A program made the translations under genes and the position numbers. Below, in pieces: positions 1,568 through 7,454 of a stretch of 64,000 nt of DNA. The number at the start of each line of letters is the position of its first letter. Position 1 is the first letter of the stretch. The notes beneath the pieces are model-generated. The model was not told the DNA's origin and did not search any database. It saw only the letters and a list, made by a program, of their open reading frames with translations. The stretch comes from Escherichia phage ECO07P2: sequence record OP172785; one strand, 5' to 3'.

Positions 1568-2053
1568 TTATTCCATTTCTACTATATGCATGTTCTTTTT
1601 GCTATCAAAATATATGTTTTTAACTATTAACTCAGAATTAATTGGCAGTAAAAACTCTCTTTCATAATCTACCATACAAAGATTATCATAAAGCTTGTTA
1701 AGCTTATCATCGTCAGTTTGGCCAGATTCTTCAATTGCGATTAAATTTTCTAAAATGTCAATCATAGCAGTCGAATAGTCGAAAACGTTTGCATTTTTTA
1801 ACACTACTAAAACATTAGTCATATAGCGTTCTGCTGCAAACGTTTCAGCTATATGAGACTCACTGCTAAAGGAAGTTATTCTTTTAAATTTGATTCTCCT
1901 ATTAACTTCAAACTTATAAGATAGCACTTCCTCTATTGTAAGTCCTCTAAAAAGTATGTCTTTAATCTCAAGTTTGTCTTTAATGTAATCATTAACACGC
2001 TTATGATTAAAATCATTAATTTTGTTGCCAAGGCATTGCATTAAAATATGCAT
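1568..2053 (-). CDS. hypothetical protein (161 aa)
   Basis: ORF in track, tight packing with neighbours; no motif recognised. Confidence 0.55.
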   Translation of the reverse strand: MHILMQCLGNKINDFNHKRVNDYIKDKLEIKDILFRGLTIEEVLSYKFEVNRRIKFKRITSFSSESHIAETFAAERYMTNVLVVLKNANVFDYSTAMIDILENLIAIEESGQTDDDKLNKLYDNLCMVDYEREFLLPINSELIVKNIYFDSKKNMHIVEME

Positions 2054-2150
2054 TGTATTCTCCTCAATTTTTAAAGAGCAATTAATTAACTACACATATA
2101 TTATAATATGCTTTGCGATAGAAGTAAACAACTTTGTGACGTCATTTTAA

Positions 2151-2177
2151 ACAAAAAAGGGAGCCCGAAGGCTCCCT
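2151..2177 (-). terminator. rho-independent terminator with UUCG tetraloop (minus strand)
   Basis: minus-strand RNA GGGAGCC-UUCG-GGCUCCC followed by U6, immediately after stop of nucleotidyltransferase ORF. Confidence 0.7.
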
Positions 2178-2178
2178 A

Positions 2179-3189
2179 TCATTTATAATAACTTCGGTGG
2201 TTTTCAAGATAAACCCTCTCAAGGAAGTCATCCCAGAAACCCATGTCTACTTTTTGCTGCATACCGTTCTTAGAAGCTTCAATGGATGCTGCTTCTACTT
2301 GATCGACCACATCTTCCAAAAACTCTTGAACAGTTTTAAATGGATGTTTACCCAACTTCACGTCGAGAATAAATGGAGCATCTTGAAGTGGATAAACCAA
2401 GTCACCAGTTTTGTAAATTTCCAATAGTTGGAGTCCACCACGACAAGCATGACTCAGAGCTTTCCAGTCAATGCCCTCATTCGCTTCAGCCTTACGAGCA
2501 CGTTCGCCGTATTCAGCATCAAGTTTATTCAAAGACTGCTTAAGCTCAATAAGAGAAAGTGTTGTCTGATATTTACGACCCAACACAGTGTAAAACGTTT
2601 GTGGACCTGTTTTCTCATGATTATGGAACACCCATTCACAGAACTCGTTTTCTGGAAGACGATGCTTAATATCTTCAACTTTAGTGCGACGCTGCTTAAT
2701 GGAACCGTCTTCTTGGTAATCAACCCACTGATCAGGGATTTGATTAACTACTTTCAATACATCACGTAATGCGGCCAAACGAGAACCCTTGACACCATAT
2801 TTAGAAGCTTGCTTGCGGACATATCCTAAATAAGATTTCATGTTAGTTGTATAAAAACGAGAACGATTGTCTTGGATAAATTTCCATACATCAGGTAAAT
2901 CAGATTTAACCACTAGTTCAGGTGGAGTGTGGAGCATATCCAATGCTACAGTTTCACCATCTGCAGCTAATTTAAAGAAATACTTAAGACTGTATAGTTC
3001 ATGGTCAATATCATCTTTAGTGTTTTTAGATGATGTGTTGTTCGTGTTTTTACTCATATGCTCTTTAACATTTCCGATAAGAATATCGCGAGCAGGAGGA
3101 ACAAAGATTTCTTTAAAATCTACATCAGATTCTGGAGTAGAAGTTCCATAAAGATGACTACCAAAATAGCTTTTCATTACTGTTTTCAT
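2179..3189 (-). CDS. Pol-beta superfamily minimal nucleotidyltransferase-like protein (GS-x3-GT-x4-SDVD motif)
   Basis: 336 aa ORF; N-terminal FGSHLYGTSTPESDVDF matches the GS...[DE]x[DE] nucleotidyltransferase signature; long helical C-terminal region; family assignment by motif only. Confidence 0.6.
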   Translation of the reverse strand: MKTVMKSYFGSHLYGTSTPESDVDFKEIFVPPARDILIGNVKEHMSKNTNNTSSKNTKDDIDHELYSLKYFFKLAADGETVALDMLHTPPELVVKSDLPDVWKFIQDNRSRFYTTNMKSYLGYVRKQASKYGVKGSRLAALRDVLKVVNQIPDQWVDYQEDGSIKQRRTKVEDIKHRLPENEFCEWVFHNHEKTGPQTFYTVLGRKYQTTLSLIELKQSLNKLDAEYGERARKAEANEGIDWKALSHACRGGLQLLEIYKTGDLVYPLQDAPFILDVKLGKHPFKTVQEFLEDVVDQVEAASIEASKNGMQQKVDMGFWDDFLERVYLENHRSYYK

Positions 3190-3650
3190 TATTCAGCCTT
3201 ATATTCAATAACAGGACATACTTTAGCTTTACGCGCTTTTAAAAATTCGACGATAATAGATTTCTTTGGTTGAATAGGAGGTAAACCTTTATACGCCCTA
3301 TCAATATTTTCTACATGTAAAGCATAATCCTTTTTCCATTTATAATCTTTATATTTTTCATGCAGTTGTGCAGGAATAACAAATGAACCAATAATAAGTA
3401 AAACAAGCAAAATAGCAAGTATAAATGCTGATGGAATAAGAGTCCATAAACTACCAAAAATAAGCCATTTCTGCATAATTTCTGCGCAGATGATAGTTAG
3501 ACCTGCGAGTATAGTACATCCGAAAAAAGAAACGAAAAATGTAGGAATAACAATAGACCAAAAATACGCGCACAGTGTCTTAGGTCGTTTCCATTCATCA
3601 TTAAACATTTTGAATAATTTATAGTGCCAAGAGTTTTCATTAATAATCAT
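3189..3650 (-). CDS. membrane protein (predicted transmembrane helices)
   Basis: 153 aa ORF with two long hydrophobic stretches (FWSIVIPTFFVSFFGCTILAGLTIICA and WTLIPSAFILAILLVLLIIGSFVIP). Confidence 0.6.
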   Translation of the reverse strand: MIINENSWHYKLFKMFNDEWKRPKTLCAYFWSIVIPTFFVSFFGCTILAGLTIICAEIMQKWLIFGSLWTLIPSAFILAILLVLLIIGSFVIPAQLHEKYKDYKWKKDYALHVENIDRAYKGLPPIQPKKSIIVEFLKARKAKVCPVIEYKAE

Positions 3651-3652
3651 AA

Positions 3653-4174
3653 TTATCCTTTCATTGAAGGTGTAACAGTTGTTAAATACTTAATCATAGC
3701 TTCAGCTTCTGATTTTGATAATGAAATTTCTCCATTGTTTTGACGAATAGAAATAAAATCCGGATGACGGTCACCACCAGCTTTTAAAACACACATATAA
3801 GTATCAGTTTCATCTTCAATATTTGAAATAATTGAAGCAGTTCCGCATGAATGCGGTTTTTGATAAATCAATACGGCTTTTCTTCCACCGTTTGACTGTT
3901 CATAAACTTTTAACACATCAAACAAATCACTTCTTTTATCAATAGCTAAGATGTTGTTTTCATCTTCAATGTTAAATCCTTCGGATACTTCATAAAGTGT
4001 CACCCATAAATCACCTATATCGATAGTAGCATTTTCCTTTCCATGACTTTCAAGAGTATGACAAATTTTCTTGATTTCGTCATAACTCATTTTAATAATA
4101 TCATCTCCTTGAATAAGGAAGATGTCATTTTTAAATTCAATACGAATTAAACCACTTTCACTCGAAATAAACAT
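3653..4174 (-). CDS. hypothetical protein, paralog of adjacent ORF 4182-4739
   Basis: 173 aa; shares GFNIE(D/S)E and C-terminal (A/E)xxK(T/Y)YL(D/T)(S/T)V(I/T)P(T/S)M with neighbour. Confidence 0.6.
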   Translation of the reverse strand: MFISSESGLIRIEFKNDIFLIQGDDIIKMSYDEIKKICHTLESHGKENATIDIGDLWVTLYEVSEGFNIEDENNILAIDKRSDLFDVLKVYEQSNGGRKAVLIYQKPHSCGTASIISNIEDETDTYMCVLKAGGDRHPDFISIRQNNGEISLSKSEAEAMIKYLTTVTPSMKG

Positions 4175-4181
4175 ATTTTCC

Positions 4182-4739
4182 TCACTTTGAAATCATAGTT
4201 GGAATGACAGAATCAAGATAAGTCTTTAGCGCAATAGCTTCGTCTTTGGTAAATGTGACAATATGTGATCGAAAATCGTCAATTTGGCGAATAGTTAAGA
4301 CATCTCCCTCTTCATAACATTTTGATACATTTAAAAGAGTTTCATCATTCTGATTGCAAGCGTTAGTAATAATAGCATTGCAATTTTTGAGCCATTTTAA
4401 ACTATGTTTTCTTTCATTAGAATAATAAAAATATTTAATCTTAGCTATAAAATTATCCCAATTATTAATTGATAAGCATATCGACTCGCTTTCAATATTA
4501 AATCCTGGGCATAAAGAATAAAAATGAATTTTATGCTCATCATTAATGCTTACAATTTTATCAGTATAAGGTTTTTCAATTTGGGTTAAATGAATAATTT
4601 CGCTAGGCGTAAAATATAGCATATCGTCTTCTTGCGTCAAACGATACATATTATTTACTTTTTCTATAGCCAATTCACCAAAAAGTGAACTAACTTCTAA
4701 TACTAATCGTTTCATATTGATTCTCTTCGACTCACTCAC
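4182..4739 (-). CDS. hypothetical protein, paralog of adjacent ORF 3653-4174
   Basis: 185 aa; first codon at 4739 is GTG with AGGAG 8 nt upstream, alternative ATG at 4715; C-terminal similarity to neighbour. Confidence 0.5.
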   Translation of the reverse strand: MSESKRINMKRLVLEVSSLFGELAIEKVNNMYRLTQEDDMLYFTPSEIIHLTQIEKPYTDKIVSINDEHKIHFYSLCPGFNIESESICLSINNWDNFIAKIKYFYYSNERKHSLKWLKNCNAIITNACNQNDETLLNVSKCYEEGDVLTIRQIDDFRSHIVTFTKDEAIALKTYLDSVIPTMISK

Positions 4740-4766
4740 AATTACATACTCCTTTGAATAATATCA

Positions 4767-4796
4767 ATAATATTGTTCACCAGATTATAAGTAAAC
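4767..4796 (-). promoter_or_regulatory. T4-type early promoter (proximal of a tandem pair)
   Basis: gtaaac 4791-4796, ataata 4767-4772 (TATTAT on minus), spacer 18. Confidence 0.5.
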
Positions 4797-4874
4797 ATCG
4801 GGTAATTATATTGAATCATCACATACACAACAAACAAAACTTTCATTCTCTTCTCCCTGGCAGTTGACAAGATT

Positions 4875-4904
4875 ACTATACCATAACCTTGCCAACTTGT
4901 AAAC
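4875..4904 (-). promoter_or_regulatory. T4-type early promoter (distal of a tandem pair)
   Basis: gtaaac 4899-4904, actata 4875-4880 (TATAGT on minus), spacer 18. Confidence 0.5.
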
Positions 4905-5069
4905 CATTAAATGACGTTTTCAATAAAATTCTGAAGCTTTGTGTGAGCATCAACCATGATTTTCATTTCTTCCTTTGCGAAAGCTGTACCTCTTTCCCGA
5001 GAAGAATACTCATAGTCAGAAACTGCATTAGCGTATTCTTCAATTAGCTTCATTAAAAACATCTGCTTT

Positions 5070-5264
5070 TCAGTTTTCATTATTCCACCTAATCATTTCA
5101 AGATATTGAACTAACTTAGCTTTGGATTTATCCAAATCTCTTTTAGCTGCTTCTATACCGTCGTATGAATATCCTTCACAATGCTCAACTGCTAATTGAT
5201 ATGAATCTATTTCAACATCACGTACTAATTTAATGATTTTTTCAAACTGTTCGTGTGTCAGCAT
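5070..5264 (-). CDS. small hypothetical protein (64 aa)
   Basis: ORF in track with ATG at 5262-5264; acidic helical-looking sequence. Confidence 0.45.
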   Translation of the reverse strand: MLTHEQFEKIIKLVRDVEIDSYQLAVEHCEGYSYDGIEAAKRDLDKSKAKLVQYLEMIRWNNEN

Positions 5265-5266
5265 AC

Positions 5267-5449
5267 TTAAACTCTCGTATTATGATCGATAATTTCATCA
5301 AGAAACATATCTAAAGCTTCTACAGCATTATCAACTTTAGCTTCAAATTCTTCAATACCTGATAAGGCAAAGTTAACGCGTTCCTCATCTGCTTTGCGAA
5401 TTAAAGCTACCAATTCTTTAATTTTATCTGCTTGTTCGATACTAATCAT
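5267..5449 (-). CDS. small hypothetical protein (about 60 aa)
   Basis: start moved to ATG at 5449 (GGTGG SD) which overlaps stop of upstream gene. Confidence 0.45.
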   Translation of the reverse strand: MISIEQADKIKELVALIRKADEERVNFALSGIEEFEAKVDNAVEALDMFLDEIIDHNTRV

Positions 5450-5637
5450 TATTCCACCACATATGAAAGAGAGAATATTGCACACGCCATATGAGTTGCA
5501 GCTTCATCACACATATCATAACGTTTCTTAAGAAGTTCTTCAAGTTCTTCACTGGTAACTTCATCCATGTCGACGAAAAAATCACCATTAATGATGACGT
5601 AGATATTTCCTTCTTGATTAAGTGCTTCAATTTTCAT
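5449..5637 (-). CDS. small acidic hypothetical protein (62 aa)
   Basis: start moved to ATG at 5637 preceded by AGAGGAG SD; track ORF extends to 5682 only for lack of a stop. Confidence 0.5.
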
Positions 5638-5665
5638 GATGTTCTCCTCTTTATCCGATGGTTGT

Positions 5666-5695
5666 ATAGTATCACAGCTCAAATGGAAAGTAAAC
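5666..5695 (-). promoter_or_regulatory. T4-type early promoter
   Basis: gtaaac 5690-5695, atagta 5666-5671, spacer 18. Confidence 0.6.
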
Positions 5696-5704
5696 CGGTA
5701 AAAT

Positions 5705-5728
5705 GAAAAAAGTCTCCCGAAGGAGACT
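5705..5728 (-). terminator. rho-independent terminator with UUCG tetraloop (minus strand)
   Basis: minus-strand RNA AGUCUCC-UUCG-GGAGACU followed by U6; directly after stop of ORF 5733-6119. Confidence 0.7.
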
Positions 5729-5732
5729 AATG

Positions 5733-6119
5733 TTATTCGAGGGAAAGAAGATACTTACTCTGGTAAAACATTCCAGTAATATCATCTATCGTGCTTTGAA
5801 TGGCTGGAGGCATTTCTTTGTAAATGCTGTTAGATTGGTCTAGTATGCGATCAATCATTTTAACTGTATCAGTAGGAAGTTTACTGGCATCCGGAATTGA
5901 CGGTGTGTATTTTCTACCAGAATACCCCAAATATTGCTCACCAAATTTATCAATCAAATCTGGCAACTCAGAGAAAATAAAATCGTATGCTTTGTGTCTA
6001 GCATAACTTTTAGTTTCAAAATGCGCAGAATGAAAATAAGCTTGCGCAGCCATTAATAAACCTAAGTATTCATCTGCCTTTGAAGGTTTTCCGCTTTGTG
6101 AAAAGTCGCTGAATTTCAT
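5733..6119 (-). CDS. rI.-1: hypothetical protein at the T4 rI.-1 position
   Basis: 128 aa ORF immediately downstream of rI; length and position match T4 rI.-1 as I recall it. Confidence 0.6.
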
Positions 6120-6409
6120 TCAGTCTCCAATTTAATGTTCATAATTCTAGCGTATGATTGTGCCATCTCCGCGCCTCGCTCTATACATTCAAAATCGGAA
6201 GAGCACGGGTCATTTTTATAGGTCGTTCGCATAAAACTATAGAACTGTTCAGATGATTCTACGCTTTTATTTTCAAAAAGCGTATAAACATGTCTAATAC
6301 CAGATTCCATAAATTTATCAAAATGAGGATCGACGTTCGCTTCAATCGGCGGAGATAAAACAAACGCTAATCCTAGCATGGCGAATAGTGCCGCTGCTTT
6401 TAAGGCCAT
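6116..6409 (-). CDS. rI: lysis inhibition regulator RI (antiholin)
   Basis: 97 aa; MALKAAALFAMLGLAFVLSPPIEANVDPHFDKFMESGIRHVY... matches T4 RI nearly residue for residue; N-terminal signal-anchor; AGGAGG SD. Confidence 0.9.
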   Translation of the reverse strand: MALKAAALFAMLGLAFVLSPPIEANVDPHFDKFMESGIRHVYTLFENKSVESSEQFYSFMRTTYKNDPCSSDFECIERGAEMAQSYARIMNIKLETE

Positions 6410-6421
6410 AAAGGCCTCCTA

Positions 6422-6634
6422 TCATTTTTGTCCTGTATTTACTTTATGCCGATGCACGGCCTTAACTTTATCAAGGTATTTTTCAAAATTTCGCAATCTA
6501 GTATAGTCTGCCGGAGATTGGTTGAGTGATACTTCTCGACGCAAAGCTGAAATGATATTTCCAACTTCCCTACGAATTTCATCTAATTGAAGAACAGTAA
6601 GATTGCGAAGTTGCTTTTCAGTTAATTGTAGCAT
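6422..6634 (-). CDS. rI.1: hypothetical protein at the T4 rI.1 position
   Basis: 70 aa ORF between tk and rI. Confidence 0.5.
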
Positions 6635-6682
6635 ATATACATATACCCCTTTAGTTAGATAAATCTATTTATAACTTTTGCA

Positions 6683-7264
6683 CTAACCGAGCTTTTTAGT
6701 TAATTCATTCCAATGTTTTCTGCACAAAGAAACATAAATTTCATCACCAATACAGATTTGATTACCTTCTTTAACTGGTGTTCCATCTTCCATTAATCGA
6801 GCTGTCATAATCGCTTTTTTACCACAATGACAAACTGCTTTTAGTTCAATAAGTTTATCTGCAATTGCCAAAAGTTCTTTAGAACCTTCAAATAATTTTC
6901 CAGCGAAATCAGTCCTTAGACCATAAGCCATAACAGGAACATTATATGTATCAACAATTCGGCTTAATTGATGCACCTGTTCAGTTTTTAAAAACTGAGC
7001 TTCATCTACAAATACACAATGAATATCTTTTTGTGCTTCAGCCCATTTATAGAACTCAAAAATATCCATATCATCCGTAATAATATTCGCTTCCTGCTTA
7101 ATTCCAATGCGAGAAACGACTTCACAGACAGAATCGCGAGTATCAATAGCAGGTTTAAGAACTAATACACTCATTCCACGTTCTTTATAATTATGTGCAG
7201 CAGTCAAAAGAGAAGCAGATTTTCCAGCATTCATTGCTGCATAAGTAAAAATTAAACTCGCCAT
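6683..7264 (-). CDS. tk: thymidine kinase
   Basis: 193 aa; P-loop FTYAAMNAGKS and C-terminal zinc-binding CxxC...CRKH typical of type II thymidine kinase; same length as T4 Tk. Confidence 0.95.
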   Translation of the reverse strand: MASLIFTYAAMNAGKSASLLTAAHNYKERGMSVLVLKPAIDTRDSVCEVVSRIGIKQEANIITDDMDIFEFYKWAEAQKDIHCVFVDEAQFLKTEQVHQLSRIVDTYNVPVMAYGLRTDFAGKLFEGSKELLAIADKLIELKAVCHCGKKAIMTARLMEDGTPVKEGNQICIGDEIYVSLCRKHWNELTKKLG

Positions 7265-7265
7265 C

Positions 7266-7454
7266 TTAGTCCTTAGTTAAATTTTCTAAATATGTTTCTA
7301 AATCATTTTCAGCTTTATCGATAGATTTTACTAATTCGTAGTATGTTTTAGCATCTCCATAATCCGAAGCCAATTCAAAAGATAAATCTCGTTCTAAACT
7401 AATAATTTCGCTGATTAAAAATCGTATTTCATTCTTTTGTTCGCGAGTAATCAT
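7266..7454 (-). CDS. small hypothetical protein (tk.1 position)
   Basis: 62 aa ORF, translationally coupled to neighbours. Confidence 0.45.
   Translation of the reverse strand: MITREQKNEIRFLISEIISLERDLSFELASDYGDAKTYYELVKSIDKAENDLETYLENLTKD

Follow-up and report, generated by a model that had tools for sequence, protein, structure and literature searches.

Tandem y05I-family paralogs at the mobD.1 locus of a T4-like phage and their predicted three-repeat architecture

Two adjoining genes on the minus strand of Escherichia phage ECO07P2 (record OP172785), located at positions 3653-4174 and 4182-4739 of the window, i.e. the whole 64,000-nt stretch of DNA analysed, are true tandem paralogs of the T4 MobD.1 (y05I) family. 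The gene at 4182-4739 is the ortholog of T4 MobD.1. Its neighbor, here called paralog A, shares the two-domain architecture of T4 MobD.1 (Y05I_BPT4; PF24449 plus PF24448; PHROG 1502) but represents a separate, deeply diverged lineage with no counterpart in T4. In both proteins the N-terminal domain, comprising repeats I and II, is predicted to adopt the Pur-alpha/Whirly-type or 'PC4-like type I' fold, and profile comparison shows the C-terminal domain to be a homolog of repeat I, i.e. a third repeat. The sequences as such are not new: hundreds of deposited Tequatrovirus genomes match them at 95-99% identity, and Pfam and PHROGs already list the family. What is added here, besides the atypical state of T4 and the separable domains described below, is the three-repeat, Pur-alpha-like build, with the signature C-terminal helix of the family lying in a repeat that probably mediates dimerisation, and the hypothesis of dimerisation combined with single-stranded nucleic-acid binding, to be set against an acidic decoy role. 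If this were confirmed, one more T4 early gene would gain a biochemical activity, with no major concept changed. The gene pair is an ordinary accessory one, and the three-repeat architecture together with a possible heterodimer might alone be noteworthy for the specialist.

The initial annotation had paired the two ORFs because of a common GFNIE(D/S)E motif and a similar C-terminus, and the ORFs as well as both likenesses are indeed present. GFNIEDE occupies residues 66-72 of paralog A (nt 3959-3979) and GFNIESE residues 79-85 of the MobD.1 ortholog (nt 4485-4505), whereas the chains end in ...SKSEAEAMIKYLTTVTPSMKG (paralog A) and ...TKDEAIALKTYLDSVIPTMISK (MobD.1 ortholog). In the pairwise alignment by BLASTP the two proteins match end to end over 175 columns, with 29% identity, 51% positives and an E value of 6e-11; the similarity is not limited to the motifs, and chance is ruled out as its source. 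Paralog A (173 aa) begins with ATG, the MobD.1 ortholog (185 aa) with GTG, and codon 9 of the latter is an ATG, from which a protein of 177 aa would result, the length of many homologs in the databases. Both Pfam domains of the family occur in N-to-C order and above gathering score in either protein. PF24449 (T4_y05I_N, cut-off 24.9 bits) covers residues 2-95 of paralog A (nt 3890-4171; 111.7 bits, E 2.8e-32) and residues 12-108 of MobD.1 (nt 4416-4706; 137.4 bits, E 2.9e-40), followed by PF24448 (T4_y05I_C, cut-off 27 bits) at residues 102-171 (nt 3662-3871; 82.3 bits, E 3.3e-23) and 113-182 (nt 4194-4403; 75.2 bits, E 5.4e-21), respectively. The profile phrog_1502 is matched over its full length, with E values of 2.5e-66 for paralog A and 8.2e-81 for MobD.1. 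ORF 4182-4739 is ≈ 87% identical to the T4 gene adjoining mobD and lies between mobD.2 and nrdC.11, the position that the gene also has in T4 and elsewhere in the Tevenvirinae, and its assignment by Pfam, PHROG and tblastn agrees; paralog A, the second y05I-family gene, has been inserted as an additional copy ahead of the gene of a membrane protein, directly after MobD.1. The C-terminal motif noted at the outset proved to be the signature helix of the entire y05I family, which also recurs in stand-alone C-domain proteins of 67-87 aa. This helix is the best-conserved part of the family, with invariant K, E, A, Y, L, V and M.

Copy number at this locus was counted with tblastn and megablast in the phage collection; IMG/VR gave just five related loci. 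MobD.1 was found in 726 phage records (tblastn), and it carries the name mobD.1 in RB51, RB69 and JS98. Paralog A occurs in 449 phage records (tblastn), in 433 of them above 80% identity, and the contiguous 1087-bp pair is present at ≥ 90% nucleotide identity in at least 366 phage records. The tandem pair is thus the common state in Tequatrovirus and no peculiarity of this window. Beyond these phages the family appears narrow: an exhaustive search of 1.84 billion representative proteins with a y05I-family profile returned 28 clusters at E ≤ 1e-3, in which full-length and fragmentary forms were joined by roughly a dozen C-domain-only proteins of the size mentioned above, so that no cellular homologs are at hand to lend a function. 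On this count the y05I family is small and, as far as the profile reaches, confined to T4-like phages. Homologs retrieved by word-indexed searches, whether with either protein or with the alignment as query, were close relatives alone, NCBIfam gave no match for the two proteins, and the sequence search of the PDB gave no significant one (CsoS1D, E 0.24, being insignificant). The literature search, which included PC4-like proteins in Tevenvirinae and Whirly proteins in T4, yielded no functional study of MobD.1, y05I or PF24449. The Pfam label of the family, 'putative transcription factor', is a prediction alone. In GenBank, MobD.1 is often misnamed 'molybdopterin-guanine dinucleotide biosynthesis protein MobD' through a confusion of names, small neighboring genes are called 'helicase loader' or 'thioredoxin', and paralog A of phage ZCEC14 figures as 'putative SSB protein', the basis of which is not given there.

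The surrounding DNA is a Tequatrovirus (T4/T2-like) segment, the first 9 kb of which match Escherichia phage ECO07P3 at 97.4% and T2 at 94.6%. All genes considered here lie on the minus strand, on which the order beyond MobD.1 is mobD.2 to mobD.5, rI.-1, rI, rI.1 and tk. The equivalent of mobD.2 (4742..4870, 42 aa), taken from the ORF list and named after the syntenic ORF of T2, would be the first gene of an apparent unit which continues with MobD.1, paralog A and a membrane protein of 153 aa (3189..3650; phrog_944, 50% identity to RB69ORF104c), in which two long hydrophobic segments can be read directly from the sequence, and which ends with the nucleotidyltransferase gene nrdC.11 (2179..3189; RlaP, E 3.7e-11; phrog_388; T2 annotation). 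The junctions are tight. Only 2 nt separate the stop of mobD.2 from the GTG of MobD.1, 7 nt lie between MobD.1 and paralog A, and 2 nt between paralog A and the membrane protein, which in turn overlaps nrdC.11 by 1 nt; a GAGG Shine-Dalgarno sequence for paralog A can be read within the 3' end of MobD.1. Upstream of mobD.2, a candidate promoter recognized by its match to the consensus (4875..4903, minus strand; TTTACA, 17 nt, TG-TATAGT) has the top sigma-70-type score in the interval 2000-7400, with 10 of 12 matches and an extended -10 TG, and thereby resembles a T4 early promoter. A terminator-like G+C hairpin with a T run follows nrdC.11 (2158..2177, minus strand; stem of 8 pairs, 6 of them GC), and a second terminator-like hairpin after rI.-1 (5711..5728, minus strand) would part the upstream unit from the genes mobD.5 to nrdC.11; in the interval 2000-7400, eight terminator-like sites were found compared to 2.3 expected. 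Both hairpins are perfect and G+C-rich, carry tetraloops of the UUCG/CGAA type, qualify as terminator-like on either strand, and flank the mobD.5-to-nrdC.11 block on either side. Taken together, the tight junctions and the promoter-like and terminator-like sites suggest a single early transcription unit, an apparent operon running from the promoter-like site via mobD.2, MobD.1, paralog A, the membrane protein and nrdC.11 to the terminator. Further along on the same strand follow an ORF of 161 aa (1568-2053), similar to the ADP-ribosyltransferases ModA/B (PHROG 832, E 1.4e-23; no Pfam match), and nrdC.10 (470-1450). The ModA/ModB-like ORF is labeled modA_2 or modB_2 in relatives and is carried by T2, and in T4 nrdC.10 adjoins nrdC.11 without this ORF in between.

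The AF2 models of both proteins show the same division: the N-domain is modeled with confidence (block pLDDT ≈ 85-95), the C-domain only poorly (< 55). The secondary structure of the modeled N-domain is beta4-alpha-beta4-alpha, i.e. two successive repeats, as expected of the PC4-like type I fold predicted for it; PH-like folds reach a score of only ≈ 4.5 against this domain, and a search of BFVD retrieved members of the family, a few uncharacterised Bacillus phage proteins and nothing else. For the C-domain, four to five strands and a long helix are predicted. Its relationship to repeat I emerged from the comparison of profiles: repeat I of MobD.1 (residues 9-57) aligned with the C-domain family with hhalign at 93.9%, E 1.6e-7 and a score of 36.3, while 30 column shuffles did not exceed 12.6 and the reversed control gave 10.3. 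The two are in register throughout, with a strand, a '..Q-dD..' turn, a second strand and the helix start 'xxEaxxL'. Repeat II gave no hhalign signal against repeats I and III, and it is the I-III relationship alone that the sequence supports. Positions 39-65 of the Pfam family DUF7189 (PF23819) weakly match residues 16-42 of paralog A (window 4049-4129; E 6.2e-5) as well as five of 14 C-domain sequences (best E 0.004), and DUF7189 may be a further single-repeat relative of the y05I family.

Among known proteins, the closest layout is that of Pur-alpha (PURA), in which repeats I and II form an intramolecular domain (3k44/5fgp) and repeat III is left over (5fgo). The full phage proteins gave no PurA match at E ≤ 0.1, nor did their C-domains at E ≤ 10, and no PDB sequence matched; the phage proteins are therefore alike in fold only and are not filed as Pur-alpha members. 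Whirly proteins (p24/PBF-2, 1l3a; StWhy2, 3n1h) are tetramers and the trypanosome pair MRP1/MRP2 (2gia) is a heterotetramer; all are basic nucleic-acid binders and have no third repeat. The conserved Whirly motif KGKAAL is absent from both phage sequences on direct reading, and no Whirly Pfam match was obtained. Borrelia Bpur (3n8b/3nm7), PC4 and the PC4-like protein of phage T5 (4bg7) consist of a single repeat and must dimerise to fold, which makes them the best analogy both for the stand-alone C-domain proteins and for the C-domain of the pair. Along these lines, Janowski and Niessing (2020, PMC7549692) pointed out that a single PC4-like repeat is unlikely to fold by itself, that repeat III of Pur-alpha homodimerises, and that Pur-alpha was at that time the sole protein known to combine both domain types, type I and type II. 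The low pLDDT of the C-domain, although it is the best-conserved part and resides in the same alignment as the well-modeled N-domain, fits an obligate-dimer fold. The third-repeat layout can also rationalize why the C-terminal helix is so well conserved, models poorly as a monomer and is able to stand alone as a gene.

Variants of the locus in relatives demonstrate how freely these parts are combined. RB69 (Mosigvirus) and JS98 (Dhakavirus) possess a single y05I-family gene, downstream of which lie the membrane protein and nrdC.11. In Yersinia phage TG1 (Tegunavirus) the syntenic site is occupied only by a stand-alone C-domain gene of 74 aa, which overlaps by one base with the next gene, whose N-terminus matches the membrane protein. 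Shigella phage SP21535 (segment 2480-3019) has a single hybrid gene made of the N-domain of MobD.1 and the C-domain of paralog A, the junction being at a shared GATGAAACT (D-E-T) microhomology with a small DQC duplication, and this looks like a deletion through recombination between the tandem paralogs. RB27 (segment 3029-3758) combines window-type paralog A with an RB69-type (Mosigvirus-like) allele of MobD.1; in RB27-type phages the DNA match to the window breaks off within mobD.1, ≈ 140 nt into its 3' end, and this indicates a recombination breakpoint inside the conserved C-domain. Some Tequatroviruses with the RB69-type MobD.1 have an extra tk.1-like small gene upstream and keep window-type paralog A. 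The hybrids, the stand-alone C-domains and the allele swaps show that the N- and C-domains are separable modules. In T2 (LC348380, segment 3684-5225), MobD.1, paralog A and the membrane protein are each frameshifted into two to three ORF fragments; the T2 paralog A is the window-type allele with frameshifts. This three-gene layout recurs in several independent T2 records, and UniProt misnames one of the T2 fragments 'Prohead core scaffold protein'. A 54% single-frame tblastn piece had made P0043 a candidate for the T2-type allele of paralog A, an assignment which was rejected, P0043 being a separate metagenomic allele. A genome-reduction study of T4 obtained viable phages lacking nrdC.11-mobD.3 (PMC9825161), and together with the T2 pseudogenes and the absence of paralog A and the membrane protein from T4 this marks the genes as accessory and dispensable in laboratory phages.

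Comparison with close relatives reveals purifying selection on both genes. Their overall dN/dS amounts to 0.07-0.17, with values of 0.13-0.20 for the N-domain and 0-0.13 for the C-domain. Between deeply divergent alleles, too, it is the N-domain that has changed far more. Paralog A and P0043 share 36% identity in the N-domain and 79% in the C-domain, and the T4-type and RB27-type alleles of MobD.1 share 40% and 65%, respectively, with 93% in the last 30 residues.

How might such a protein work? The N-terminal double-repeat domain, which is the more variable part, would presumably bind a ligand. Since a lone repeat cannot fold in the known PC4-like proteins, the C-domain most likely dimerises, and by analogy to these proteins it would pair with its counterpart in another molecule to give A-A, B-B or A-B dimers (B denoting MobD.1). 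The most likely ligand, again by analogy, would be single-stranded RNA or DNA early in infection. As a whole, this reading, with a ligand-binding N-domain, a dimerising C-terminal repeat and single-stranded nucleic acid as the ligand, is the one we prefer, but only tentatively and with somewhat less than even confidence. The main evidence against a nucleic-acid ligand is the acidic charge, which argues for caution: the pI values of the two proteins are 4.8 and 5.6, and 16 of 17 other computed family members fall between 4.2 and 5.3, the exception being P0059 at 9.2. The missing link to the PUR, Whirly and PC4 families at the sequence level likewise counts against the preferred reading.

The same acidity would suit a different role, in which the proteins are protein-binding decoys or inhibitors used in host takeover or anti-defence, a Whirly-like scaffold, possibly a nucleic-acid mimic, binding a host protein via the variable N-domain, with the two paralogs and the divergent alleles serving different targets. 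The apparent early operon in the accessory nrdC-tk region, the dispensability of the genes in the laboratory, the far greater variation of divergent alleles in the N-domain than in the C-domain, the exchange of alleles between genera, and the occurrence of immunity proteins and chaperones among the fold relatives are all in line with such a function. Yet the suggestion of the initial annotation that the pair is typical of specificity or anti-defence loci found no direct support: selection is purifying, the predicted fold is PC4/Pur-alpha-like, and the defence profiles of PADLOC gave no meaningful match (Orf5 partially, E 0.0021, 15 bits). We regard a decoy role as unlikely on balance, though it has to be taken seriously. 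Elements of both readings meet in a bolder proposal, for which the chances are rather slim: the family would be a second, independent case of type I and type II PC4-like domains in one protein, A-B heterodimers in most Tequatroviruses would join two allele-variable N-domains, and the resulting early complex would either recognize one particular RNA or ssDNA or, by mimicking nucleic acid, capture a defence protein of the host.

The conserved position of the membrane protein raises yet another possibility, namely that the y05I proteins form a module with it, for example by serving as its soluble partner or regulator in some early function related to the envelope; the well-conserved C-domain would then contact the membrane protein instead of dimerising. 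The membrane protein lies directly 3' of a y05I-family gene in Tequatrovirus, Mosigvirus, Dhakavirus and Tegunavirus, with a gap or overlap that measures 1-2 nt in TG1 and in this window, but ≈ 10 nt in RB69 as well as JS98. TG1 has retained the C-domain alone, still coupled to the membrane protein; in T2 the frameshifts affect MobD.1, paralog A and the membrane protein jointly, and in T4 paralog A and the membrane protein were lost together. Synteny in T4-like early regions is, however, generally kept whatever the function, which weakens the argument from gene order. Moreover, T4 MobD.1 is intact without the membrane protein, so at least MobD.1 is independent of it. Such a module is improbable and a weaker rival than the decoy role; the readings are not mutually exclusive.

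The history of the pair can be judged from an NJ tree (172 columns, 200 bootstraps), in which paralog A and P0043 form a clade outside the MobD.1 clade of Tequatrovirus, Mosigvirus (RB69) and Dhakavirus (JS98) with 100% bootstrap support. All types of MobD.1 are roughly equally remote from paralog A, at 24-30% identity for the N-domain and 30-37% for the C-domain. The split of paralog A may thus be older than those genera, or A may be fast-evolving or imported, three histories that an NJ tree of 172 columns does not separate. Of the local duplication with subsequent diversification proposed initially, the tandem arrangement and the divergence of true paralogs stand, but the event was not a recent one, as paralog A falls outside the fully supported MobD.1 clade. 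A recent local duplication that then diversified rapidly in an arms race, for which the tandem genes and their genuinely common domain architecture could speak, is largely refuted and most improbable in view of the position of A outside a 100%-supported clade of orthologs from three genera, the mere 26-32% identity shared by the two copies, the stability of the pair across its many records, and purifying selection.

In T4 itself the HNH homing endonuclease gene mobD (T4 segment 4106-4885) replaces paralog A and the membrane protein (window 3189-4174). At ≥ 95% identity, T4 mobD is found in 47 phage records only, as opposed to the at least 366 records with the pair; T4 is therefore atypical at this locus, and the second paralog was missed by nomenclature and study based on T4. 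The cleavage target of the endonuclease is listed as unknown (PMC2988022), which makes the paralog A/membrane protein cassette, or its flanks, in phages devoid of mobD candidate targets.
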